DNA of 46,305 nt, taken from a virus. The stretch's first letter is position 1; every line of letters starts with the position of its first letter. Position numbers and translations under genes: made by a program. Shown here one piece after another: positions 1,245 through 27,432 of the stretch. Below the pieces are notes generated by a model that made no database searches, had not been told where the DNA came from, and worked only from the letters and a program-made list of their open reading frames with translations. The DNA is taken from the UHGV virus genome UHGV-1364013, one strand, 5' to 3'.

Positions 1245-1862
1245 ATGGGCACTATGTTAGGAATAGGATGGAATAGAAAATGCGAACATTGCGGGACTAC
1301 TTTCAGGGCATTTTCGCATAAACAGAAATTTTGCTCTGAGGAGTGCGCTTTCCTTGGAAGGCTCAAAAGGATTGACGTTTCTGGATGTATCGAATGGCAA
1401 GGTAACATCAATAATTCTGGATATGGTGTGATGAGCGTCATCCGTGAAGGGAAAAGGAAAATTGTAGGTGTGCATAGATACGCATGGGAGCGAGTACACG
1501 GTAAAATTCCTGATGGGATTTGTGTATGTCACAAATGCGACAACCCTAAGTGTGTCAATATCGACCACCTTTTTATAGGTACAAGGTACGACAATAACCA
1601 TGACCGTTCACTCAAAAATCGTAGCGGAAAGAGGGTTTTTACAGATGAAGAGCGCTATAGGTATTCGTGTATAAACAGTGGAGGAAAAAACAACTCTGCA
1701 AAGCTCACAGAAGAACAAGTCATACAGATAAAAAATCTACGCGGAAAATGTACTAGGAAAGAGATAGCAAAGAAATTCAATGTATCATTGGCTTGCATAA
1801 AAGACATTTTCGGAGGAAAGACGTGGAAATTCCTAGAGGACAATACATCAAAAACGTGCTGA
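1245..1862 (+). CDS. Free-standing HNH homing endonuclease (HNH_3-type) with a C-terminal HTH
   Basis: Motifs HRYAWERVHGKIP...CHKCDNPKCVNIDHLFIGT. N-terminal CxxCG..F..KFCSxxC zinc ribbon. AT-rich island in a GC-rich genome. SD aaaaggagaaaagg. Confidence 0.8.
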   Translation: MGTMLGIGWNRKCEHCGTTFRAFSHKQKFCSEECAFLGRLKRIDVSGCIEWQGNINNSGYGVMSVIREGKRKIVGVHRYAWERVHGKIPDGICVCHKCDNPKCVNIDHLFIGTRYDNNHDRSLKNRSGKRVFTDEERYRYSCINSGGKNNSAKLTEEQVIQIKNLRGKCTRKEIAKKFNVSLACIKDIFGGKTWKFLEDNTSKTC

Positions 1863-2524: not shown

Positions 2525-2536
2525 ACATGCTAAATT

Positions 2537-2578
2537 GACATCCTCCCCCGACTTCAGGCGGGGGAGGATGTCAACCTC
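2537..2578. repeat. Perfect 40-bp palindrome that copies the IS605 right-end hairpin (cccccgacttcaggcggggg core)
   Basis: The core is near-identical to the RE hairpin at 25472-25501 of the full IS. Flanked by ggatgtcaa arms. Confidence 0.6.
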
Positions 2579-2589
2579 CTACGCGGCCC

Positions 2590-2712
2590 GCCTTTTTCTG
2601 TATCTGTCGAGCATACCGGGGTTCTGAGCGAGCTCGCACCGGAATGCGGAAATCACGTCCACATGGTAGGCGTTGATACCTTCCGGGTATTCTGGGGTGG
2701 CGATTTTCTCTA
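2590..2712 (-). pseudogene. Remnant 3' end of an antirepressor (Ant/KilA-C) gene
   Basis: Translation NAYHVDVISAFRCELAQNPGMLDRYRKRRAA matches the C-terminus of the Ant protein at 32571..33374 (KAYHVDVIEAFRLSLKNDLNMLGKYRLRRAA). Bracketed by IS-derived hairpins. Confidence 0.4.
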
Positions 2713-3039
2713 TGGATTGACATCCTCCCCCGCCTGAAGTCGGGGGATTCCCAGCGGAGGCAATCTTGCGATTGCGTCCCTGAGCGGGTTCCTGCTTCAC
2801 CGAGACTGCCCAGAGGAACAAGGCTTGGTTTTCGCCGCAAACATTCCCACGTGGGGAATTTTACGGGTACGAACCAACCGCCTATTCCCCCAGGTCTCAC
2901 CATCTCTCCACAGGCTGACACGGCATGCCCTGCCGCCGTGTCACCTGTTAGCAAACAAAGGCAGGAAAGTCAAAATTCCAGTTAAGGTGCGCCTTATATC
3001 CTCCCCCTAAAGGGCGAGGCTTTACGGCGCTTTGGGTAA
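2711..3039 (-). mobile_element. IS200/IS605-derived MITE/PATE, inverted relative to the full IS; no tnpA or tnpB
   Basis: Reverse-complement RE hairpin at 2712-2747 and reverse-complement LE at 2975-3035, including the ccagcgcgccgtaaag-like end. Reverse-complement TTAC target (GTAA) at 3036-3039. Interior shares cgggttcctgcttca and aattccagttaaggtgcgcc with the full IS. Confidence 0.55.
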
Positions 3040-3113
3040 AACAATGGCTAGTTCAGTTTGTGTTATCCCCGTTGCTTTCATCCCATCGTGAATGGCTTTT
3101 TGTACTGTGGTGT

Positions 3114-3863
3114 TCATCTCCCTTCCTCCACGGCCTTGCGCCTTTTGATCATCTCATCGGCCTTTTTAATCCAGCACAGCTTTCTGAATACGATATCTTG
3201 ACAACGGTGCAGTCCTCTGAGATTACATCCTTCACACCCACCAGTGATGGCTAGCAATCTTGCCAATTCCCATATCCTTGCGGCATTTTTTTCATTGGAG
3301 TTCATCTGTTCTGACTGCCTCGCGAGCGGCTTCCCGCGTCCGAGTTCGTCCTCAAGAGCGTTGACCTTGCGGACGGCGACGGAGGCGGTCGCCATCGCGG
3401 TGGCTGTCTTTTTGTCGCTGATCCATGCTTTGGTGCGGATGGCCTCGTCCCGTTGGCGGCGGATAAGCTCATTCTCTTCAAGCATGTTGGCATATGCGCG
3501 TAATGCCTCTGGGAGAGAGGTTGGGGCGTTTGCTTGGAGGGCCTTTTCCATCTCGTTGAACCGGGCGATGTAGGCAACTTTGAAGGCCATAGCCTTTTCG
3601 CCTGTGTAGCCCATAGTCAAGAGCGTGAAGGCGTCCTTGCTGAGAAGGTAGGACTTGGCCATTCGTGTTCCGATACCCGTTTCAATGGGATACTCGTAGA
3701 GCTCAAAATTGAGCTTTACGAACTTTTCAGGTACTTGCGGCAAGATTGCTTCAATATCCCGCAGCACGTTTTTGTGTTCCTTCTCAAAGCTCTCCGCCAC
3801 CTGCAACGAGGTCACGGCGGGAACGTCCTTTCCGTTGATATTATTCAATGCGATTTCGATCAT
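3114..3863 (-). CDS. Rha-family phage regulatory protein with a C-terminal Cys4 zinc-ribbon module
   Basis: N-terminus LNNINGKDVPAVTSLQVAESFEKEHKNVLRDIEAI is the Phage_pRha signature. C-terminal CEGCNLRGLHRCQDIV...LCW module. Confidence 0.7.
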   Translation of the reverse strand: MIEIALNNINGKDVPAVTSLQVAESFEKEHKNVLRDIEAILPQVPEKFVKLNFELYEYPIETGIGTRMAKSYLLSKDAFTLLTMGYTGEKAMAFKVAYIARFNEMEKALQANAPTSLPEALRAYANMLEENELIRRQRDEAIRTKAWISDKKTATAMATASVAVRKVNALEDELGRGKPLARQSEQMNSNEKNAARIWELARLLAITGGCEGCNLRGLHRCQDIVFRKLCWIKKADEMIKRRKAVEEGR

Positions 3864-4967: not shown

Positions 4968-5152
4968 TTTCCTTCCTCTCCCTTTCTCGGCATCTTGTCC
5001 CATGCATCTTTTGCCCGCTTCTTCGTACTGCGCCACGGGCCACGACATCGGCAATCGAGCGCGGAGCACTCGACGGCGTACCGCCCCGGAGCGACTTTTT
5101 CGCATTGATTCATGGTACATCCGCACGCAGGACATGCTTTCACTATCAGCAT
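4964..5152 (-). CDS. Small zinc-ribbon protein (CPACGC...C.C..C)
   Basis: Cys-rich and compact. Coupled to the next gene. Confidence 0.4.
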   Translation of the reverse strand: MLIVKACPACGCTMNQCEKVAPGRYAVECSALDCRCRGPWRSTKKRAKDAWDKMPRKGEEGK

Positions 5153-5385
5153 TGCGGCCTCCCTTCCTCCACGGCTTTACGCCTTTTAATCATCTCATCG
5201 GCCTTTTTGATCCAGCACAGTTTTCTGGATACGATATCCTGACAACTGTGCAGTCCCCTGAGATTACATCCTTCACATCCGCCAGAGATTGCAAGCAATT
5301 CTGCCAATGCCCATACCATTTCGGCATTTCTTTCATGTTTGGAGTTCATCTTTTCTAGCAGCCTCGCGAGCGGCTTCCCGTACAT
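5146..5385 (-). CDS. Stand-alone Cys4 zinc-ribbon module protein, paralogous to the Rha C-terminal domain
   Basis: About 85% nucleotide identity between 5150-5395 and 3108-3375. CEGCNLRGLHSCQDIVSRKLCWIKKADEMIKRRKAVEEGR. Confidence 0.5.
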   Translation of the reverse strand: MYGKPLARLLEKMNSKHERNAEMVWALAELLAISGGCEGCNLRGLHSCQDIVSRKLCWIKKADEMIKRRKAVEEGRPQC

Positions 5386-16079: not shown

Positions 16080-16419
16080 TCTGTCCTTGGGCTGGTTCAT
16101 GTTTGAGTGCCCAAGGTATTGTGAAATCTTCGGCCCCGGTGCGTGTGTTGGGGTATTTGACAAAAAGGAGTGTGTGGTCAACAACCCCTGCCTAAAGGCA
16201 GAGGCTTGATAAAAGCCTTGGTTGACTAGCCTCAGACCGCCCAAAAGGCGGACTACGTTGGTTGGGAATGCATAGGCACCGCGGGATGACAATCCTAGTC
16301 CCGCGCTCTGCGGTTCGCGGTTAAAAGCTCTGAGAGGTAGGAGCGGTGCCGCGAACAGGTAAACCCCTTCCAACATTGGCGAAGGATTACAACCGGTCGC
16401 AAGACCGAGGAGACAAATC
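16080..16419 (+). ncRNA. Structured non-coding region (many G.U-compatible hairpins, nested long-range pairing); candidate ncRNA
   Basis: Stems: ccttgggc/gcccaagg; ctgcc-taaa-ggcag; aggctt-gata-aagcct; ccgcc-caaaa-ggcgg; cgcggga/tcccgcg nested inside ggcaccgc/gcggtgcc. No convincing ORF. Confidence 0.35.
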
Positions 16420-16902
16420 TTGAGAGTATTTGTTTTAAACAAACGAGGGCAACCGCTGATGCCGTGCTCACCGGCAAAAGCGATGAGCACATACAGGGAA
16501 GAATCGTTGTCGGAAACACTGCAAGACATGTCCGACCGTTTCGGAAAGCCCTTTGTCCGGCACATGATTGAACGCTTCGCGGGTATAACTCTTATTATTC
16601 CCGTCAAAAGCCGGAAGACGCGGCTAGCTCGGGAATTGTGCACCTTCTTGGGGCAGGATGCCCTTTCCGACTTTCTGCACACCTATGGCGGTACGAGAAT
16701 CTATATCCCCACTTTGCGCCGGGCGAAGATCCGCGCACGGGACATGGACATCAACGCCGAGCGGGACGAGTTGGCTCGCAAGGGGCTGAGTGAAAGAGCG
16801 CTTGTCGCCAGGCTCGCCACGCTGCACGGGCTTTCCGAACGGCAGGTGTGGCGCATTTTAAAACAGCCGAGAACCTCGGACAACAGGGAGGCGGCGTCAT
16901 GA
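16420..16902 (+). CDS. Mor/C-family late transcriptional activator with an N-terminal 20-aa RRXRR/PLMP-like segment (TTG start)
   Basis: C-terminus YGGTRIYIPTLRR...ELARKGLSERALVARLATLHGLSERQVWRILKQ is Mor-like. N-terminus (L)RVFVLNKRGQPLMPCSPAKA. SD gaggag 7 nt before the TTG. Confidence 0.5.
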   Translation: MRVFVLNKRGQPLMPCSPAKAMSTYREESLSETLQDMSDRFGKPFVRHMIERFAGITLIIPVKSRKTRLARELCTFLGQDALSDFLHTYGGTRIYIPTLRRAKIRARDMDINAERDELARKGLSERALVARLATLHGLSERQVWRILKQPRTSDNREAAS

Positions 16903-19613: not shown

Positions 19614-19626
19614 TATTTTTCTTTAT

Positions 19627-19670
19627 CCAGCGCGCCGTAAAACCTCTCCCTTCAGGGGGAGGATATAAAG
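19627..19670. repeat. Solo IS605 left-end (LE) hairpin copy after TTAT: ccagcgcgccgtaaaacctctcccttcagggggaggatataaag
   Basis: About 85% identical to the LE of the full IS at 23742-23790. Its ggagga provides the SD for terS. Confidence 0.55.
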
Positions 19671-20224
19671 TGGGAGTTGTGAGCATGGCGTCAAGATTTG
19701 ATTGGGAATCCATCCGTGCCGAGTACGAAGTAGGGGCGAGCCAGTCCGATCTGTCCAAGCGTTACGGTGTGAGCCGGACAGCCATCCAAAAGCGCATCCG
19801 GGCCGAGGGCTGGGTGCAGGACATTTCCGGCACCGTGAACCGCATGGCGGAGGCCAAGGTTGTGGGCGTGGTTGCAGGCTGCAACCCTCAAAAAAAGGCC
19901 GAAGCCTTGGACCGCGCCGCCGAAGCCAAGGCCGCCGTCATCACCCGCCACCAACGGGAGTGGGATCGACATCAGGCCCTCATTGATGAGGCGTTGTCCC
20001 TGGGCAGCTTCGACAAGGCCAAGCTCGCCAAAATCACAGCCGAGACGATCAAGATCCGGCAGGAGGGCGAGCGCAAGGCGTGGGGCATCGTTGACAAAGC
20101 CGCGTTGGATCACACTTCATCCGACGGTTCGCTATCTCAGCGTCCGGTGGATCTCTCGCACCTCTCTCCGGACGAGCTGCTTCGCCTGACAAAGGAAGCC
20201 TTCAAAACGCCGGATCATGAGTAG
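19670..20224 (+). CDS. terS: Terminase small subunit (HTH-containing); alternative ATG start at 19685
   Basis: Lies directly upstream of terL. N-terminal HTH LSKRYGVSRTAIQKRIR. Stop overlaps the terL start. Confidence 0.5.
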   Translation: MGVVSMASRFDWESIRAEYEVGASQSDLSKRYGVSRTAIQKRIRAEGWVQDISGTVNRMAEAKVVGVVAGCNPQKKAEALDRAAEAKAAVITRHQREWDRHQALIDEALSLGSFDKAKLAKITAETIKIRQEGERKAWGIVDKAALDHTSSDGSLSQRPVDLSHLSPDELLRLTKEAFKTPDHE

Positions 20225-23200
20225 CCCCGCCATCCTTTCCGATATCCGGAAGGCGCTGGCCCGGAGCTGTCTCGCGGCCTTCGTGCGCTACACCATGCCC
20301 GGCTACCGCATGGGATGGGTGCATGAGGAAATCTGTTCCGAGCTGGACGCCTTCCTTGCCGATGTCGTAGCTGGACGTTCCCCGCGCCTCATGCTGACCA
20401 TGCCCCCGCGACATGGGAAACTGTGCGCTGATGATACTCCTGTTTTGACGGTTGATGGGTGGAAAACTCATGGTGCGCTTAAGGTTGGTGATTATGTATT
20501 TCACCCAAGTGGCAAACCTGTGAGGGTTGTTGCTGTGGGCGAGAAAAATTTTGCCACTCATTCTGTTGTTTTTACCAATGGCGACATAATAGATGTGCAC
20601 CTTGATCATGAGTGGCGGGTGTATGACAGGACTAAACCCGGATATAGAACAGTTGAGACACGATACTTTGTGGAGCCAAGCAAAAAAACTAAGGCGCTTA
20701 GGAAGCTGGATAGCGGTATCCCAGACACCAGAGGGCACAGGTATTTGTATCAGGTGGACACAGCTGATGCTCCCCAATGGCCTGCCGTAGAACACGTTAT
20801 CCCGCCATACGTTTTGGGCGTGTGGTTAGGTGATGGAACGTCAATCGCGCCCAGAATAAACATGGCTCCTGATGACGCTTGTGTCGTCAAAATGGAGTTT
20901 GAACGACTAGGTGTGCCAATAACTGGAACATGGGTGCATAGAGATACTGGAGTTGAAACTTTTTCATTTGCCAGCGGCGTGAAAAATAGAAGAAATATAT
21001 TTTCGCAGGCTCTAAAAGATGCTGATCTGCTAAAAAATAAACATATTCCTAATGAGTACAAGCATGATAGCCTAGAAAACAGGCTTGACTTGCTTGCTGG
21101 ACTTATTGATACGGATGGTCATTTTGATAGAAAGACAAACAGATATCGTTTTACAACATCCAATGAGCTGTTAGCGCATGATGTAGAAGAATTGGCCATG
21201 CTATGCGGGTTTGTAGCGCATACAAATATCCCAGCACTAGATAATCGGGAAAGAACGATTAAAAATAAGTCACAGGTTTATGTGGTGTCATTTTTCTTTT
21301 CCGGTGTAGTTGTCCCGTGCAGACTTGAACGGAAAAAAGTTAATAAAACGTTTTCTTCTCTGCGTCGGCGCGTATCCATCAAATGTGTACGAGCGCTAGA
21401 GTCGCCTAAAATGGGGAATTGTATTCAGGTGGATAGTCCAGATGGCTTATATTTAGTTGGCAAACACCTTACGATAACCCACAATAGCGAGCTGGCCTCC
21501 CGCCGCTTCCCGGCCTACGCCTTGGGCCGCTACCCCGATCTATCCGTCATTTCAACGAGCTACGCCGCCGACCTGTCCTCGCGCATGAACCGCGATGTTC
21601 AGCGTGTCATCGACAGCCCGGAATACCGGGAACTCTTCCCGGGAACAGCCCTTTACGGCAAGAATATCCGCACCGTCGGGAACGGCTCTTATCTCCGCAA
21701 CTCGGATATCTTCGAAATCGTGGGGCACGCTGGCTGCTACCGTTCCGCTGGCGTGGGCGGCGGCATCACGGGCATGGGTGGGCATATCGTCATCGTCGAC
21801 GACCCGTTCAAGGACCGGGCGTCCGCCGATTCCCCGACCATCCGCCAGAACGTCTGGGACTGGTACACGTCCACGTTGTACACGCGCCTCGCGCCCGGTG
21901 GAGGGGTGCTCATCATCAACACTCGCTGGCACATGGCTGACCTTTCCGGGCGGCTGCTTGAGGCCGCCGCACGGGGGGAGGGCGACCACTGGCGCGTGGT
22001 AAACTTCCCGGCCATCGCCACGGAGGATGAGCCGCACCGCAAGGCAGGTGAAGCCTTACACCCTGAACGCTACCCGTTGGAGCAGCTTCTTGCCATCAAG
22101 AAAGCCCTCGGCACACGCGACTGGGAGGCCCTGTACCAGCAGCGGCCTACGCCAGACGGCGGCGCCATCTTCAAATCCGAGTGGCTGCGGTTCTGGCTCC
22201 CCAAAGACCTGCCGGAGCAGTTCGACCAGCTCCTTATCTCGTGGGATATGACGTTCAAGGACGGCGACGATACCGACTTTGTTGTGGGGCAGGTGTGGGG
22301 CCGCAAGGGGGCAGACCGCTACCTCCTCGATCAGGTCCGGCGGCGCATGGGATTTACGGACACGGTCGCCGCGTTCCGGGAGCTCGCCGCCAAATGGCCC
22401 GGCGCAGCCCGCAAGCTGGTGGAAGACAAGGCCAACGGCCCGGCGGTCATCGACGCGCTGAAACACGCCGTGCCCGGTATCATCCCCGTGGAGCCGGACG
22501 GCAGCAAGACGGCTCGCGCCCATGCTGTGACCACGTTCTTCGAGGCCGGGAACGTCCTTATCCCGCACCCTGAGCATTGCCCGTGGGCGCGGGAGTACGT
22601 CGCGGAACTGACGCAGTTCCCCGGAGCGCCCCACGACGATCAATGTTTTGCTGCAGGCACTTTAGTTGCGACTTTGCGAGGGGGTATCCCAATTGAAAAA
22701 GTAAAGGAAGGTGATTTTGTTGTGACTCCTCAAGGGTTTAGGCGTGTGTTGTTCGCTGGAAAAACCGGAGAGTCTGTGTTATTGTATCGACATGGAATTT
22801 TTGCAACTGCGAATCATCCGTTCATGAAAACCAGTGGAGAAGTTTGCAAATTTGCAGAAATAGAAAAGTCTGAACTTGTTCACATGACTATAAGGGAGTT
22901 GCTAGTATGGATATTCCGAAAAGAGTTGAATTTAATGGCGTCACCTATGCCCTCATGGCAGGGGGGAAATACTATCTTAGTCAGTCAAAAACAAACGCAG
23001 GTGGGAAAAATCCGAAGGGGCTTCATGTCGCTATTTGGGAATACTACAGTGGCAAGAAAGTCCCTAAAGGGTATGAGATTCATCACAAAGATGGTAATAC
23101 ACATAACAACAATTTTGACAACCTTGAGTGTTTATCACGTTGTGAACACCGCAAAACGGTTAAGCAAAACAAAGAAAAATGCCGTAAGCACCTTGAAGAA

Positions 23201-23717
23201 GTACGCCCTCTTGCTACTGAGTGGCACAGGAGCGAAGAAGGCCGTGCATGGCATCGAGAGCAAAGCAGGAAGGCATACGCAAAAAGAGAGTATACTGAGC
23301 ATGTTTGTGAGTACTGCGGCAAGACGTATAAAACGCGCCATACGGGAAAAAACCGCTTCTGTTCCCATAATTGTGAAATCAAATGGCGATATCACAATGA
23401 ATACGAGCTTGCCGAGGGTGTGTGCCAATGGTGCGGCAAACCGTTCACATACAAGACCGGAACCTGCAGAAAAAACAAAGTACGTAAATTCTGCAGCAAG
23501 TCTTGCAGCACAAGCCACTTCAACGCCCAACGCCGTGCCAGTGTATAACCTCACCGTAGAGGGCGAGCACCTTTATTTTGCTAATGGGGTGCTCGTCCAC
23601 AATTGTGACGCCACCACGCAGGCCCTCCGCGACTTCGATACCAAGCGGCCCATGTGCATCGACACCCGGATACTGCGCCAGCCGCGCATGGAGTTGAGGC
23701 GCATTGGGGGGATTTGA
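20217..23717 (+). CDS. terL: Terminase large subunit precursor with two inteins (mature protein about 493 aa)
   Basis: Exteins carry the P-loop PRHGK(L|S), the ATPase motif VIVDDPFKD and the nuclease domain. Intein boundaries are C...THN|S and C...VLVHN|C. Confidence 0.8.
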   Translation: MSSPAILSDIRKALARSCLAAFVRYTMPGYRMGWVHEEICSELDAFLADVVAGRSPRLMLTMPPRHGKLCADDTPVLTVDGWKTHGALKVGDYVFHPSGKPVRVVAVGEKNFATHSVVFTNGDIIDVHLDHEWRVYDRTKPGYRTVETRYFVEPSKKTKALRKLDSGIPDTRGHRYLYQVDTADAPQWPAVEHVIPPYVLGVWLGDGTSIAPRINMAPDDACVVKMEFERLGVPITGTWVHRDTGVETFSFASGVKNRRNIFSQALKDADLLKNKHIPNEYKHDSLENRLDLLAGLIDTDGHFDRKTNRYRFTTSNELLAHDVEELAMLCGFVAHTNIPALDNRERTIKNKSQVYVVSFFFSGVVVPCRLERKKVNKTFSSLRRRVSIKCVRALESPKMGNCIQVDSPDGLYLVGKHLTITHNSELASRRFPAYALGRYPDLSVISTSYAADLSSRMNRDVQRVIDSPEYRELFPGTALYGKNIRTVGNGSYLRNSDIFEIVGHAGCYRSAGVGGGITGMGGHIVIVDDPFKDRASADSPTIRQNVWDWYTSTLYTRLAPGGGVLIINTRWHMADLSGRLLEAAARGEGDHWRVVNFPAIATEDEPHRKAGEALHPERYPLEQLLAIKKALGTRDWEALYQQRPTPDGGAIFKSEWLRFWLPKDLPEQFDQLLISWDMTFKDGDDTDFVVGQVWGRKGADRYLLDQVRRRMGFTDTVAAFRELAAKWPGAARKLVEDKANGPAVIDALKHAVPGIIPVEPDGSKTARAHAVTTFFEAGNVLIPHPEHCPWAREYVAELTQFPGAPHDDQCFAAGTLVATLRGGIPIEKVKEGDFVVTPQGFRRVLFAGKTGESVLLYRHGIFATANHPFMKTSGEVCKFAEIEKSELVHMTIRELLVWIFRKELNLMASPMPSWQGGNTILVSQKQTQVGKIRRGFMSLFGNTTVARKSLKGMRFITKMVIHITTILTTLSVYHVVNTAKRLSKTKKNAVSTLKKYALLLLSGTGAKKAVHGIESKAGRHTQKESILSMFVSTAARRIKRAIREKTASVPIIVKSNGDITMNTSLPRVCANGAANRSHTRPEPAEKTKYVNSAASLAAQATSTPNAVPVYNLTVEGEHLYFANGVLVHNCDATTQALRDFDTKRPMCIDTRILRQPRMELRRIGGI
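20424..21485 (+). mobile_element. Intein 1 (354 aa) with a LAGLIDADG homing-endonuclease domain, inserted in the terminase Walker-A loop
   Basis: Starts CADDTPVLTVDGW. Contains LDLLAGLIDTDGHF. Ends ITHN followed by +1 Ser. AT-rich relative to its flanks. Confidence 0.75.
22644..23603 (+). mobile_element. Intein 2 (320 aa) in the terminase nuclease domain
   Basis: Starts CFAAGTLVATLRGGIPIEKVKEGDFVVT. Ends GEHLYFANGVLVHN followed by +1 Cys. AT-rich. Confidence 0.7.
22907..23548 (+). CDS. HNH endonuclease ORF nested out-of-frame inside intein 2
   Basis: HHKDGNTHNNNFDNLECLSRCEHRKT is an HNH motif. C-terminal CxxCGK..RFCSxxC repeats. Frame offset +2 relative to terL. Confidence 0.65.
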   Translation: MDIPKRVEFNGVTYALMAGGKYYLSQSKTNAGGKNPKGLHVAIWEYYSGKKVPKGYEIHHKDGNTHNNNFDNLECLSRCEHRKTVKQNKEKCRKHLEEVRPLATEWHRSEEGRAWHREQSRKAYAKREYTEHVCEYCGKTYKTRHTGKNRFCSHNCEIKWRYHNEYELAEGVCQWCGKPFTYKTGTCRKNKVRKFCSKSCSTSHFNAQRRASV

Positions 23718-23810
23718 GGCTGCGTGGGACCCACGCGTTACCCAGCGCGCCGTAAAGCCTCGCCCTTCAGGGCGGGGATATAAGGCGCACCTTAACTGGA
23801 ATTTTTGCCT

Positions 23811-24227
23811 TTAATTGGGCGTTCGTTGAGCTTCGATATACTGCCGCAGGACAGAGATAGGCGCTCCTCCGCAGCTTCCAGCAAAATAACTTGGCGACCA
23901 GAGTGAACCGCCCCAGAGTTTTTTCTGGATCGAAGGATAGCCTTTCTTGCGAATCAGCCTGCTGGATACGCCTTTCAGGCTGTTGACCAAAGACGAAATG
24001 GCTACTTTTGGAGGATAGACGACAAGCAGATGAACATGATCGTCTTCCCCGTCAAATTCAATAAGTTCCGCCTCAAAATCACGGCAAACACTGGCAAATA
24101 TTTCCTTCAAGTCGTCAAGAATGACCTTTGTGAAGACGCCATAGCGATACTTTGTAACAAAGACCAAATGGGCATGAAGAAGGAATACGCAGTGTCTTCC
24201 AGTACGAATATCGTTGACTTTTTTCAT
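23811..24227 (-). CDS. tnpA: IS200/IS605 Y1 HUH transposase TnpA
   Basis: HUH motif HVHLLV and catalytic Tyr region SPSYF. 138 aa. Confidence 0.85.
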   Translation of the reverse strand: MKKVNDIRTGRHCVFLLHAHLVFVTKYRYGVFTKVILDDLKEIFASVCRDFEAELIEFDGEDDHVHLLVVYPPKVAISSLVNSLKGVSSRLIRKKGYPSIQKKLWGGSLWSPSYFAGSCGGAPISVLRQYIEAQRTPN

Positions 24228-24241
24228 AGGCCAACTATGAT

Positions 24242-25450
24242 TTGGCTATGGAAAGATTGCAAGCCTACAAGTTCCAGCTCCGCCCCAAAGCTGAGCAGGA
24301 AAGCCTCATGCGGCGTTTTGCCGGATGTTGTCGTTTCCTTTGGAACAAGGCGCTTGCATTGGAAAAAGAGACCTATGAAAAGGAAGGGAAGCGTCTGGGG
24401 TTTTCCTTGCTCTGCGAAGCCCTTCGGGACTGGAAGAAGGAAAACGACACATCTTTTCTTGCTGAAGCCCATTCTCAAATTCTGCAACAAGCGTTGAAAG
24501 ATCTCGATAGGGCCTACAAAAATTTCTTTGCCAGGCGTGCGGATTTTCCGCGTTTCAAGAGAAAGGGGGTTCATGACGCCTTTCGCTATCCGCAAGGTTT
24601 CAAGCTCGATGAAGGCAACAGTCGCATATTTCTACCTAAAATTGGGTGGGTACGCTACCGCAACAGTCGTAAAATAGAGGGAACACCGAAACAGGTGACA
24701 GTTTCTTTGTCCGCAGGGAAATGGTTTGTTTCTATTCAGACGGAACGAGAAATTCTTGAACCGGTGCATCCTTCGCAAAATATTGTTGGCATAGACATGG
24801 GAGTTGCGCGTTTTGCAACGCTCTCCGATGGTTCTTGCATCAAACCGCTGCACAGTTTCCGAAAGCATGAAAAGAAGCTGGCAAAGCTGCAACGCAAATT
24901 GGCAAAACGAGTGAAGTTTTCCGCCAGCTGGCAGAAGCTCAAAGCCAAAATACAGCGCCTGCACCGTACAATAGCCAATGTACGCAACGATTTTCTGCAC
25001 AAGACAACAACGATGATCAGCAAAAACCACGCTCTTGTCGTGATTGAAGATTTGAAAGTGCGGAATATGTCGCGTTCGGCTTCCGGTACGCTTGAAGTTC
25101 CGGGCAAAAATGTGCGCGCCAAGTCCGGCTTGAACAAGTCCATACTGGATCAGGGATGGTTCGAGTTTCGGCGGCAGCTTGAGTACAAGTTGAAATGGCT
25201 GGGTGGAAAGCTGGTTGTCATACCTCCGCAGTATACCAGTCAGACATGCAGTCATTGTGGATGCGTAGACAGAGCAAACAGACCAACGCAGGCGAAATTC
25301 AAATGTACGGCCTGCGGATTTGAATGTAACGCCGACCATAATGCGGCGTTGAACATTCTGGCGGCCGGGCAGGCCGTGACAGCCTGTGGAGCGGGAAGGG
25401 CTCAAGCGCCCGCATTGAAGCAGGAACCCGCCTATGGCGCGGCTCGTTAG
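24242..25450 (+). CDS. tnpB: TnpB (OrfB_IS605; RuvC-like RNA-guided nuclease with a Zn ribbon)
   Basis: RuvC motifs GIDMG, VIEDLKV and NADHNAALNI. Zn ribbon CSHCGC...CTACG. Confidence 0.85.
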   Translation: MAMERLQAYKFQLRPKAEQESLMRRFAGCCRFLWNKALALEKETYEKEGKRLGFSLLCEALRDWKKENDTSFLAEAHSQILQQALKDLDRAYKNFFARRADFPRFKRKGVHDAFRYPQGFKLDEGNSRIFLPKIGWVRYRNSRKIEGTPKQVTVSLSAGKWFVSIQTEREILEPVHPSQNIVGIDMGVARFATLSDGSCIKPLHSFRKHEKKLAKLQRKLAKRVKFSASWQKLKAKIQRLHRTIANVRNDFLHKTTTMISKNHALVVIEDLKVRNMSRSASGTLEVPGKNVRAKSGLNKSILDQGWFEFRRQLEYKLKWLGGKLVVIPPQYTSQTCSHCGCVDRANRPTQAKFKCTACGFECNADHNAALNILAAGQAVTACGAGRAQAPALKQEPAYGAAR

Positions 25451-25841
25451 AGCCGCTACCGATAGGAATCCCCCGACTTTAGGCGGGGGAGGATGTCAAC
25501 CCAGTACTATGTAGCCTGCTGTAATGGTAGACTATTTTTTTTGAAATCGTAACCCCTCCGTACCTTGACTTCTTCCAGCTTTTGTGCTGTTCTTTTTTCA
25601 CGGTGCTTCAAAACACCTTCGCTGGCGGTAGCCAACCCCGAAACGTGGCCTTTTTTGTGCCCTGTCAAGACTTGTATCCTCTTGGCTGTGGTGTATCCTA
25701 CGGACATTGACTCCGGGTGTGGGCTAATACAATACCGATTCGTCGGGAATATGCCCGCTGTCCAGCGACAGTTTTGAGCACCCGGAGTTTTGCTATTTTG
25801 GCGGCTCCAATGAAAGGTGTCCGACATCCATGCACCCGAAC

Positions 25842-25887: not shown

Positions 25888-27432
25888 ATGAGCAAGAAGC
25901 GCACTTATCGACACGCCACCTCCATACCCCAAGTGCAACCGTCGCGTCGTCTGAATCTCTCCCCGGACGTGCGCGACGGCCTTGCTCAATCCTTGCCGCC
26001 TACGCCCGACGACATCAGCCGGTTGTACGGCCCTGCGAAGACGCTCGGCGCGCCCGAAGATGTGCAGCTTGCGATGGATGCGCGGCTTGCGGATTCCGGC
26101 GTCTATTCCCTGCTCCAGCACTCGCTTGAGCTTGGGGTCGGGATTGCGCCGCAATTCATGGGCTACGGCGTCCTCCAGAACCTTGCCCAGAACGGCCTGA
26201 TCCGTGCCTGCGTCGAGACGGTATCCGACGATATGACCCGAGCATGGATTGAGTTCAAGCGCGAAGGGGAGGGCGGCGACGAGTCATTGCTCACCGACCT
26301 TGCGCAGGCGTGCAATAGGTTCGCACTGCAACGCCTTTTCCATGAGGCGACCGAGCTTGTGGGGTACGAGGGCGGGGCCTTCCTTTTCATCGACACCGGG
26401 TCCGTCGGCCAAGAGCTGGAACGCCCGCTGAACGTCAGCCCGTATTCCGCCGAACTCAGGCCCGGCGGCGTGCTGCGCTTCGTCGTCATCGACCCCGTGA
26501 ACGTCTTCCCCGGCGACTACAACAGCCTTTCACCGCTTGAGCCGGACTACTTCCGCCCGCGCTGGTGGTGGGTGCTCGGGCAGCGGGTGCACGCCTCGCG
26601 CCTCATCCGATTGGTTGCAAACGAATGCCCGGTGCTGCTGCGGCCCGCCTACAATTTTTTGGGCATCCCGCAGGCGCAGATCCTCTGGGATTACGTCCTG
26701 CATTTTCAGGAATGCCGCGCCGCCGAAGCCCGGCTACTGACCAAGTTTTCGCTGACCGTCTTCAAGACGAAGATGGAAGATATCCTGTACGCGTCCGGGG
26801 GCACGGCACAGATCGATGCCCGCATCCGGTACATGATCCAGTCCATGACCAATGACGGCGTGCTTGCCGTCGACAAGGAATCGGAAGACGTGGTCAAGCT
26901 GGAAACCCCGCTTTCCGGCGTGACCGACATCGTGCGCCAGTCCCTTGAAATCCTCGCTGCCCTGAACCGAACCCCTGCGGTCAAGCTGCTTGGCATCAGC
27001 CCGTCAGGGTTCAATGCCACGGGCGAATCGGACATCCGCAACTACTATGACCATGTCAGGAGCCAGCAGGAGAAAGTCCTGCGCGACGGCATCAAGAAGG
27101 CGCTCGACTGTATCCAGCTCTACCTGCGCGGAACCATCGACCCGTCCGTGACGTTCGACTTCGCACCCCTTGGCGAAGAAGACAGAGCGGCCCTTGCGAC
27201 GCTCCAGAAGACCAAGGCAGACACCATCGCCGTCTACATGGATCGGGACATTATCTCTCAAGAAGAGGCCCGGCAGTCCCTTGCCAGTGACCCGGACAGC
27301 GGCTTCTCCGACATAGACCCGGCGGAAGTGCCGCAGGGCAACGGAATGCCCGACGCCCTGCCGGAAGCCGGGGAAGGGGGCTTGATGCCCGACATCGACG
27401 ACGTGGACAAGGCAGGGGCCGTCTATGGCTAA
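25888..27432 (+). CDS. Portal protein (Mu gp29/DUF935-like)
   Basis: 514 aa. Positioned between terL and the Mu-F-like gene. C-terminal acidic tail. Confidence 0.6.
   Translation: MSKKRTYRHATSIPQVQPSRRLNLSPDVRDGLAQSLPPTPDDISRLYGPAKTLGAPEDVQLAMDARLADSGVYSLLQHSLELGVGIAPQFMGYGVLQNLAQNGLIRACVETVSDDMTRAWIEFKREGEGGDESLLTDLAQACNRFALQRLFHEATELVGYEGGAFLFIDTGSVGQELERPLNVSPYSAELRPGGVLRFVVIDPVNVFPGDYNSLSPLEPDYFRPRWWWVLGQRVHASRLIRLVANECPVLLRPAYNFLGIPQAQILWDYVLHFQECRAAEARLLTKFSLTVFKTKMEDILYASGGTAQIDARIRYMIQSMTNDGVLAVDKESEDVVKLETPLSGVTDIVRQSLEILAALNRTPAVKLLGISPSGFNATGESDIRNYYDHVRSQQEKVLRDGIKKALDCIQLYLRGTIDPSVTFDFAPLGEEDRAALATLQKTKADTIAVYMDRDIISQEEARQSLASDPDSGFSDIDPAEVPQGNGMPDALPEAGEGGLMPDIDDVDKAGAVYG

Follow-up and report, generated by a model that had tools for sequence, protein, structure and literature searches.

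What course of events brought a gene-less transposable element, a fragment of an anti-repressor gene and a palindrome built from the end of an insertion sequence (IS) side by side in one phage? The locus lies at positions 2,537 to 3,039 of the viral genome UHGV-1364013, whose full 46,305 nucleotides are called the window below. A preliminary description had recognised here an IS605-derived miniature inverted-repeat transposable element (MITE) and an extra palindrome, and had taken the two as bracketing the remains of an Ant-like gene. Comparison with related phages leads us to a composite history as the best explanation, one that we consider probable: three independent products of IS200/IS605 elements meet at this locus, namely the MITE, a junction in ant that joins two insertion sites, and an older palindrome, termed SYM. 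Sequences used for comparison are designated by L numbers, and the coordinates of the features are collected in Table 1.

BLAST of the window against itself revealed that 2972-3039 matches 23805-23738 (92.6% over 68 bp, E 2e-23), which comprises the left end (LE) of a full-length resident IS and its TTAC; that 2713-2799 matches 25503-25416 (79.8% over 89 bp, E 3e-14) at the right end (RE); and that 2906-2937 matches 25391-25360 (90.6%). The last 41 nt of the MITE RE are 93% identical to the resident IS. Both ends of an IS are present, far above chance, and the list of open reading frames (ORFs) contains no transposase ORF within the MITE. The description of the element as an IS605-family MITE with both ends and no transposase was borne out, with identities by self-BLAST and alignment of 93% for the RE end and 92-93% for the LE over 64-68 nt, above the limit of about 70% that had been set for the hairpins. 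The element placed at 2711-3039 is real, but its exact limits are 2717 and 3035, with the TTAC (3036-3039) outside. The proposal that its interior is a deletion derivative of the full IS did not hold: there is an 82-nt stem insertion at about 2822-2905, the blocks shared with the resident IS are about 80-90% identical, and the element is most closely related to MITE copies found in L028 (97.9% over 327 bp) and L030 (100% over 277 bp), two other phage contigs, in which the flanks differ from those in the window and mark separate sites. A second MITE lineage, of 364 bp, was found in L038. The comparison of MITE and IS was made by BLAST and MAFFT, a global alignment with cheap gap extension having been discarded for its spurious fragments. 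An Rfam search gave no match within the MITE; its only matches in the window, HEARO and sRNA-Xcc1, lie elsewhere.

The MITE is a further case of a known class, the PATE-type (palindrome-associated transposable element) derivatives of IS200/IS605, and protein-less PATE-like IS605 elements have been described before (PMC10055086; PMC3119063). Like the PATEs and ISGst of Geobacillus stearothermophilus in those reports, it is short and protein-less, keeps LE and RE and is presumed to be mobilised in trans, and some of them carry omega-RNA sequence; unlike them, it lies in a phage anti-repressor gene, carries the 82-nt insertion in a scaffold stem and appears as a recombinant of two insertions. In IS608 the TTAC lies outside the LE and the TCAA 10 nt 3′ of the foot of the RE hairpin (PMC3201880). 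The elements in the window share with IS608 and IS605 of Helicobacter pylori, which move by single-strand 'peel-and-paste' transposition, the insertion 3′ of TTAC, subterminal imperfect hairpins at both ends, TCAA exactly 10 nt 3′ of the RE hairpin foot, and a Y1 (HUH) TnpA and a TnpB encoded by the full copy. The end chemistry is also of the IS608 type, with tetranucleotides of the AAAG/GGAAT kind 5′ of the hairpin feet (AAAG in the LE, GGAAT in the RE). The MITE differs in being gene-less, in residing in a phage and in having junctions from two target sites. It would have moved as single-stranded DNA through a Y1 TnpA acting in trans, for example one from the intact copy at 23742-25499.

Each junction of the MITE matches a separate empty site. 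On the RE side, the related phage contig L053 is 88% identical to the window over 2135-2716; the homology stops exactly at 2716 and is followed by an intact Rha/Ant gene. L149 has the same arrangement at 98% identity. The empty target in both is GGTTAC followed by TCCATAGAGAAAATC (TTAC and then TCCATAGAG, starting TTAC-TCCATAG). An Ant-like 3′ remnant had been reported between palindrome and MITE, and this was confirmed: it comprises 45 codons, is 88-98% identical in DNA sequence to the intact genes of L053 and L149, and has a further intact orthologue in L027. The 45 residues encoded by the remnant also form the C-terminus of the proteins of L053 (198 aa shown) and L027 (263 aa). Full Rha/Ant proteins match Phage_pRha, phrog_518, phrog_4936 and anti-repressor phrogs, and the 45-aa fragment by itself gave no family match in the profile search. 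The intact Ant gene that was to be looked for at this position in related phages is thus present in L053 and L149 with an empty TTAC site. On the LE side the flank is not ant but a gene for a helix-turn-helix (HTH) protein, intact homologues of which, about 100 aa long, occur in L145-L148. In L147 and L148 the site is empty and reads ATTGTTTTAC followed by GCAGCAGAG (CTAGCCATTGTTTTAC and then GCAGCAGAGCG), a second bona fide TTAC target (TTAC-GCAGCAG). Since the LE and RE junctions match different empty targets, we conclude that the MITE joins two different insertion sites.

The ant gene itself is split three ways. Codons 1-178 remain at 3330-3863, where a foreign tail has been joined to them; about 38 codons (RYKSVKAIPWLL...STDLGY) have disappeared; and the last 45 lie cut off behind the MITE. 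Of the earlier suggestion that the element inserted into ant or deleted most of it, the insertion stands, as the RE junction falls exactly at the TTAC target of ant, but only about 38 codons are missing. Microhomology (GGGAAGCCGC) at about 3330 joins ant codon 178 to the foreign tail. The tail segment, 3114-3330, is a paralogue of ORF 5146-5385, and the module of ORF79 and the HTH gene is also found in L146. The paralogous segments 3118-3200 and 5159-5241 share 91.6% identity over 83 bp and are similar in protein sequence over about 70 aa; they belong to a duplicated early-region module in which a small Cys-rich protein is followed by the HTH gene in one copy and by a Lar-like gene in the other.

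The window MITE differs from the copy in L028 at 7 positions, clustered within about 40 nt at the start of the LE, and its LE hairpin is a hybrid, with an IS-like left arm (CCTCGCCC) and a right arm (GGGGGAGG) shared with L038 and the solo LE at 19626. Both features are consistent with recombination between two copies. Homologous recombination between two MITE copies would most likely have produced the two-site arrangement; the alternative is a one-ended transfer of the RE strand by TnpA into the TTAC of ant. The same two-site signature was found in a related tnpB-only IS, for which L001 and L014 have identical left flanks, with the right flank of L001 lying 1.5 kb further on, again after a transposon-adjacent motif (TAM).

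The SYM has perfect arms of 16 bp and a non-palindromic centre of 8 nt: it is a pair of IS right termini, both with TCAA at the end, placed back to back on one common hairpin. A stand-alone perfect palindrome of 40 bp had been described at 2537-2576; it is real and based on the RE hairpin, but it lies at 2535-2574 and its 8-nt centre is asymmetric. CCCCCG-N8-CGGGGG occurs three times and GGATGTCAA four times in the window, against 0.3-0.4 expected. As single-stranded DNA the 16-bp stem folds with -20.7 kcal/mol (z -8.5), compared with -9.1 kcal/mol for a normal RE. A functional RE has the order GGAAT-hairpin-AGGATGTCAA, and the SYM has TTGACATCCT-hairpin-AGGATGTCAA, its 3′ tail being mirrored on the 5′ side; every SYM has ..ATCCT before the hairpin where all sampled normal REs have GGAAT (GGAAG or AGAAT in a few). 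In IS608, where the cleavage site (CR) is placed 10 nt 3′ of the hairpin foot, removal of the guide tetranucleotide (GR) abolishes the robust synaptic complex (PMC3201880). The SYM departs from a functional RE in that GR is replaced, and both the GR position and the TCAA (CR) are sequestered in the stem. These features suggest that the SYM is inert for TnpA, a fossil rather than a spare RE. As an intrinsic terminator it is unsupported by the terminator scan, which made no call at the SYM; three T's follow it, and terminators were called nearby at 2391-2430 and 2491-2515.

In L053 and L149 the SYM is present without the MITE, from which it follows that the SYM is older than the MITE and independent of it; the view that palindrome and MITE bracket the ant remnant as one event was not borne out. 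The ant-side junction of the SYM, TCAA followed by CCTCCTACGCGG, is identical in the window, L053 and L149. The distal flank of the window SYM is common to L053 and unrelated in L149. In L028 a SYM occupies the intergenic region between terminase and portal, which in the window is occupied by the full IS, and supplies the terminase stop codon. SYMs coincide with mosaic or deletion junctions. Two SYMs at unrelated positions were found in each of two related phages (L149 1968-2011 and 13859-13898; L011 3000-3039 and L053 8092-8131, which are the same contig), and one of those in L149 fills nearly the whole gap between two convergent stop codons.

A scan of IMG/VR for the RE motif yielded 61 stretches, six of which, on five contigs (L006, L011, L028, L038, L053 and L054), are symmetric and at different sites; a SYM is present in about 10% of the sampled phage contigs carrying this RE. 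A scan of one genome per species yielded 69 SYM stretches in diverse bacteria and archaea, including Desulfovibrio, Enterobacter/Klebsiella plasmid DNA, Streptomyces, Chlamydiae, cyanobacteria, Halorubrum and Methanomassiliicoccales, with lineage-specific inner hairpins. Phage contigs including the window together with these 69 stretches give 76 SYMs, of which 74 have no tnpA or tnpB within 2.5 kb. Their boundaries are sharp. Complementarity beyond TTGA/TCAA was at the chance level (55/14/6 observed, 56/14/5 expected), and a viral scan with reduced arms recovered the same six stretches among eight, only one of the eight being not a full SYM and apparently unrelated; a boundary set by random template-switch endpoints is ruled out by these two results. 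TTAC or TTAT was found at none of 150 SYM flanks, which rules out both insertion of the SYM as a unit 3′ of a TAM and precise replacement of an IS with retention of its TAM. Both sides of the SYM look like RE-side junctions.

A SYM with identical flanks occurs in Klebsiella and Enterobacter contigs (L092 3208-3247, L067 and L109) and in many E. coli plasmids. In plasmid NZ_CP151001.1 it lies at about 90.5 kb (L131, about 1581-1620), unannotated, between fecI and a transposase fragment in IS-rich DNA. No empty-site allele of the L092 locus was found in E. coli genomes, and nothing specific on solo or symmetric RE palindromes was found in the literature. A close parallel is with the repetitive extragenic palindromes (REP) and bacterial interspersed mosaic elements (BIME) with their REP-associated tyrosine transposase (RAYT, TnpA-REP; PMC3479197): the SYM is likewise short, solo, extragenic, related to substrates of Y1 HUH enzymes and often at the 3′ ends of genes. 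Unlike these, it comes from the exact RE terminus of a tnpB-type IS, is present at 1-5 copies per genome and has outer arms (GGATGTCAA) that are identical across phyla.

One allelic series bears on the origin of the SYM. In L014 a tnpB-only IS (TAM TCAT) is followed by a 1.5-kb segment and then by TGTTTTCTGG, which is preceded there by ..CACTCAT; in L001, L044, L047 and L057 the RE of the same IS abuts TGTTTTCTGG directly. In L054 a SYM abuts this TGTTTTCTGG, and the IS and 230 bp to its left are missing. On the bottom strand of L001 and L014, the left breakpoint of L054 is preceded by GGGTCAT. Each junction of the L054 SYM thus lies at a TAM site, the two being on opposite strands (for the second, p is about 1/256). 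The best explanation of the origin, to which we give slightly less than even credence on the strength of these alignments, is that two inverted IS or MITE copies with their REs facing outward collapsed to leave the 40-mer. As the RE hairpin is nearly its own reverse complement, an inverted pair would carry a direct repeat of roughly 20 bp, set 10 bp in from either outer end. If this repeat slipped or recombined, an event that the foot of a long and unstable inverted repeat would favour, the exact 40-mer would remain, with its loop in either orientation. The loop is indeed flipped between the window and L053 at the same site. Palindromes stimulate deletion between direct repeats and long inverted repeats are unstable, as in slipped mispairing of the Glickman-Ripley or Sinden type; here such a process is proposed as the route from two inverted IS copies to a SYM, as inferred from L014, L001 and L054. 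In the same tnpB-only IS, whose TAM (TCAT) and RE end (TCAA) differ by one base, the RE-adjacent deletion endpoints all follow TCAT (L014 1454-4575, L001 4510-6128 and L054 3941-3980; also L048 and L021). The near-identity of TAM and end raises the possibility that TnpB targets its own element next to the RE.

The MITE may have a further role, as a source of guide RNA. Its 3′ 230-255 nt are homologous to the tnpB-3′/RE region, the omega-RNA scaffold, of tnpB-encoding relatives. Comparison of the MITE with the 3′ ends of two full ISs, the MITE of L038 and two copies in L002, five sequences that come from the window and three contigs, revealed invariant blocks, GGCGGCAGGGCATGCC..GCCTGTGGAG, GAAGCAGGAACCCGC and the RE, and between them a hairpin that keeps its pairing while changing its sequence (GCGGCTC/GAGCCGC in the IS, GCAATC/GATTGC in the MITE). 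RNAalifold on 10 sequences gave 17 consensus pairs, 7 of them with compensatory changes; because the variable stems are poorly aligned and one helix is the RE DNA hairpin, this covariation is suggestive only. As RNA the MITE folds with -116.5 kcal/mol, against -89 ± 4.7 for shuffled sequences (z -5.8). The reading frames of the Rha chimera and the HTH protein lie directly upstream of it and run in the same sense, and read-through transcription is therefore plausible. Such transcripts would yield an omega RNA with the guide TCCATAGAGAAAATCG, which would guide TnpB to ant alleles that lack the MITE and have a flanking TTAC, as in L053 and L149. Preceded by TTAC, this 16-mer is found in the intact ant genes at 16/16 positions in L053 and 15/16 in L149; in the window its sole exact copy is the RE-adjacent one, and every other site has at least 3 mismatches. 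The logic would be that of standard TnpB homing and retention, here between co-infecting phages. That the MITE may donate a guide to TnpB in trans is consistent with all the tests run. As in the omega RNA (reRNA) of ISDra2 TnpB (Karvelis 2021, PMC8612924; Meers 2023), the scaffold comes from the tnpB 3′ end and the RE, the guide lies outside the RE and the target is a TAM-flanked empty site. The MITE differs from ISDra2 in that its putative RNA gene is uncoupled from tnpB, would depend on TnpB in trans and is likely to target alleles of competing phages rather than a sister chromosome.

The main rival to an inverted pair is that the SYM arose from a single RE, by strand switching templated on the hairpin (a quasi-palindrome 'correction') with deletion of the IS body and no inverted copy. 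Intrastrand template switching does act at the hairpin, as shown by the loops that flip, both between the window and L053 and in 4 of about 60 normal REs, and there is a possible TGAC microhomology at the left junction of L054. We consider this unlikely, as the arms always end exactly at TCAA with extension no better than chance, and the one reduced-arm stretch out of eight that is not a SYM looks unrelated; moreover, a switch in register would leave tnpB attached, yet 74 of the 76 SYMs are solo, and the left breakpoint of L054 abuts a TCAT TAM on the opposite strand with the probability of about 1/256 given above. A SYM that is itself a functional or mobile unit, whether a minimal TnpA-mobilised element, a bidirectional terminator, an mRNA-stabilising hairpin or a recombination linker, would fit genomes with several copies (five in Desulfovibrio sp. 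Dsv1 and three identical ones in a metagenome-assembled genome of the Chlamydiae), positions between convergent genes where it can supply TGA stops (L028 and L149), and its coincidence with mosaic breakpoints in three related phages. It is nevertheless improbable to our minds: there is no abutting TAM and no conserved target motif in the flanks, the guide tetranucleotide is lost and the TCAA buried in the stem, no terminator was called, and the five Dsv1 hairpins differ and so are not recent copies of one another.

The MITE raises two alternatives. It could be a mere parasite mobilised by TnpA, its RE-proximal structure serving end recognition at the DNA level, with no functional omega RNA; this is a doubtful but serious possibility, favoured by the lack of an internal promoter, by the 82-nt insertion relative to full elements and by the fact that the RE DNA hairpin, needed by TnpA itself, accounts for part of the conserved pairing. 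However, conservation reaches about 230 nt upstream of the RE, whereas IS608 TnpA requires roughly 45-56 nt of RE (PMC3201880), and it takes in blocks common to tnpB-encoding relatives; the very stable fold (z -5.8) and the sense orientation downstream of expressed-looking genes also speak for an RNA. Much less credible is a single MITE insertion into ant whose LE flank was later replaced by an unrelated illegitimate event, involving neither a second copy nor transposase. The microhomology at about 3330 does attest illegitimate joining in the region, and no parental copies were found in the collections scanned, but the LE junction falls exactly after the bona fide TTAC of the intact HTH genes of L147 and L148, where a random breakpoint would rarely fall, L001 and L014 repeat the pattern of a shared left flank and a TAM-adjacent right flank, and the differences from L028 and the hybrid hairpin of two subfamily types both lie in the LE. 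Several observations weigh against the composite history that we prefer. One presumed parent would be a MITE within the HTH gene that has GCAGCAG as its RE flank, the other a MITE within ant that has GGTTAC as its LE flank; neither was found in the RE-pattern viral scan or in the single metagenome scan, which searched the SYM-ant junction only. The inverted-pair origin has one resolved case, L054; an uncollapsed inverted IS pair was not seen; and the ant-bearing relatives without a SYM, L133, L134 and L138, lose their homology to the window exactly at the limit of its SYM, with no TTAC there. The promoter scan found no sigma-70-like promoter in or near the MITE. Finally, because of the 82-nt insertion in its scaffold and an identity to the resident IS of about 80% over the RE-proximal 87 nt, recognition of the MITE RNA by the resident TnpB is unproven.

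Profile and ORF analysis shows that the window is an uncultured tailed-phage genome, with genes for terminase, portal, Rha/Ant, Lar-like and HNH proteins. The region gave no match and no close isolate among public phage genomes (megablast and blastn), and the best match of the portal protein, to Burkholderia phages, is 45% identical. The large terminase gene lies at 20217-23717 and the portal gene at 25888-27432, with the full-length IS between them. Its tnpA and tnpB are divergent, as in IS605 (ISfinder descriptions). The TnpB resembles that of ISDra2 (E 1e-53) and keeps the three RuvC motifs (D/E/D: GIDMG / IEDL / NADHNAA), and both proteins appear intact from their sequences. A filled and empty pair for a full-length relative, L137 and L140 (GGGGCCTTTAT followed by TGAGATATG), shows clean insertion without duplication; together with the LE junctions it gives TTAC/TTAT as the TAM of the family. 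No RE partner lies near the solo LE, which directly precedes the small-terminase ORF and shows compensatory changes in its hairpin (CCTCTCCC/GGGGGAGG).

Table 1. Features of the MITE-SYM locus and of related elements in the window
Feature	Position	Strand	Evidence and remarks
Protein-less IS200/IS605-family element (PATE/MITE), 319 bp	2717-3035	-	Self-BLAST, ends, alignments
MITE RE	2717-2757; TCAA 2717-2720, hairpin 2727-2746	-	AGGATGTCAA (10 nt) after stem; element ends GGATGTCAA
MITE LE, subterminal imperfect hairpin	2972-3035	-	Folds as expected
TTAC target (TAM) abutting LE	3036-3039	-	Belongs to HTH gene, not ant
SYM palindrome, 40 bp	2535-2574		TTGACATCCT-CCCCCG-ACTTCAGG-CGGGGG-AGGATGTCAA; 4 nt after ant stop
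3′ remnant of Rha/Ant anti-repressor gene, last 45 codons and stop (IEKIATPEYPEGINAYHVDVISAFRCELAQNPGMLDRYRKRRAA)	2579-2716	-	IEKIATPEY...RKRRAA; orthologues
Truncated HTH (XRE-like) gene, 27 native codons (MNTTVQKAIHDGMKATGITQTELAIVL) at 3040-3117, then read-through into MITE LE	3022-3117	-	Homologues
Chimeric Rha gene, in which ant codons 1-178 (Phage_pRha domain) are joined at about 3330 to a foreign tail of 71 aa	3114-3863	-	ORFs, profiles
Omega-RNA-like structured region	about 2717-2945	-	Includes 82-nt stem insertion
Predicted omega-RNA guide TCCATAGAGAAAATCG, 16 nt	2716..2701	-	Immediately 3′ of the TCAA of the MITE; predicted from known TnpB architecture
Putative autonomous partner IS, full length	23742-25499	+	TTAC 23738-23741 abuts LE; between terminase and portal genes
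tnpA of resident IS	23811-24227	-	Full-length Y1_Tnp profile match, E 4e-43; HVH and SYF motifs visible
tnpB of resident IS	24242-25450	+	OrfB_IS605, Cas12f1-like TNB, HTH
RE of resident IS	hairpin 25470-25489, TCAA end at 25499	+	CCCCCG-ACTTTAGG-CGGGGG, then AGGATGTCAA
Solo LE-like sequence, related IS subfamily	19626-19668 (19622 with preceding TTAT)	+	87% identical to MITE LE

A free-standing ORF of 205 aa resembling an HNH_3 homing endonuclease, another selfish element of this phage, lies near the region at 1245-1862 (+). The terminase ORF, 20217-23717, encodes 1166 aa, and boundaries of the forms C...HN followed by S and C...HN followed by C in its translation suggest two intein-like inserts; window 22644-23606, which contains an HNH-like ORF (22907-23548) in another frame, is absent from the related phage L028. 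The HEARO match noted above (IscB/IsrB omega-RNA) is full length at 16177-16393 (+), with 141 bits and E 2e-29. The ORF that follows it, 16420-16902, starts with MRVFVLNKRGQPLMPCSPAKA, which we take to resemble the PLMP N-terminus of IscB/IsrB, and continues into unrelated sequence. HEARO and this ORF look like a degenerate IscB-type element, the remnants of a second system of the OMEGA type (obligate mobile element-guided activity) in the phage. The sRNA-Xcc1 match, 25711-25795 (+), falls in the 390 bp that separate the full IS, at its RE, from the portal gene and scored 53.4 bits against a gathering threshold of 53.

The locus offers a natural case of a gene-less element with an apparent TnpB guide-RNA gene aimed at a phage regulatory gene, with a TnpB encoded elsewhere in the same phage; as the guide-like MITE and TnpB occur together, TnpB-mediated homing or exclusion between co-infecting phages becomes directly testable. 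The two-site copy presents dispersed MITEs as recombination substrates that remodel phage genes, here with an anti-repressor truncated and fused to foreign sequence. The SYM recurs in many phyla and is unannotated in the one annotated record examined, the E. coli plasmid; if its proposed origin and effects are true, it would be a marker of past IS605 activity and of recombination junctions. A wider reading, which we hold to be rather unlikely, is that SYMs are an undescribed and very widespread class of IS200/IS605 solo palindromes, formed by a specific pathway (collapse of an inverted IS pair or an aberrant TnpA reaction) and creating mosaic junctions in phages, while MITE recombination shuffles modules and MITE omega RNA cuts the alleles of competitors. 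If that reading is true, SYMs would be portable homology and breakpoints, and the omega RNA of the MITE would let the TnpB of one phage cut the MITE-free alleles of its competitors.

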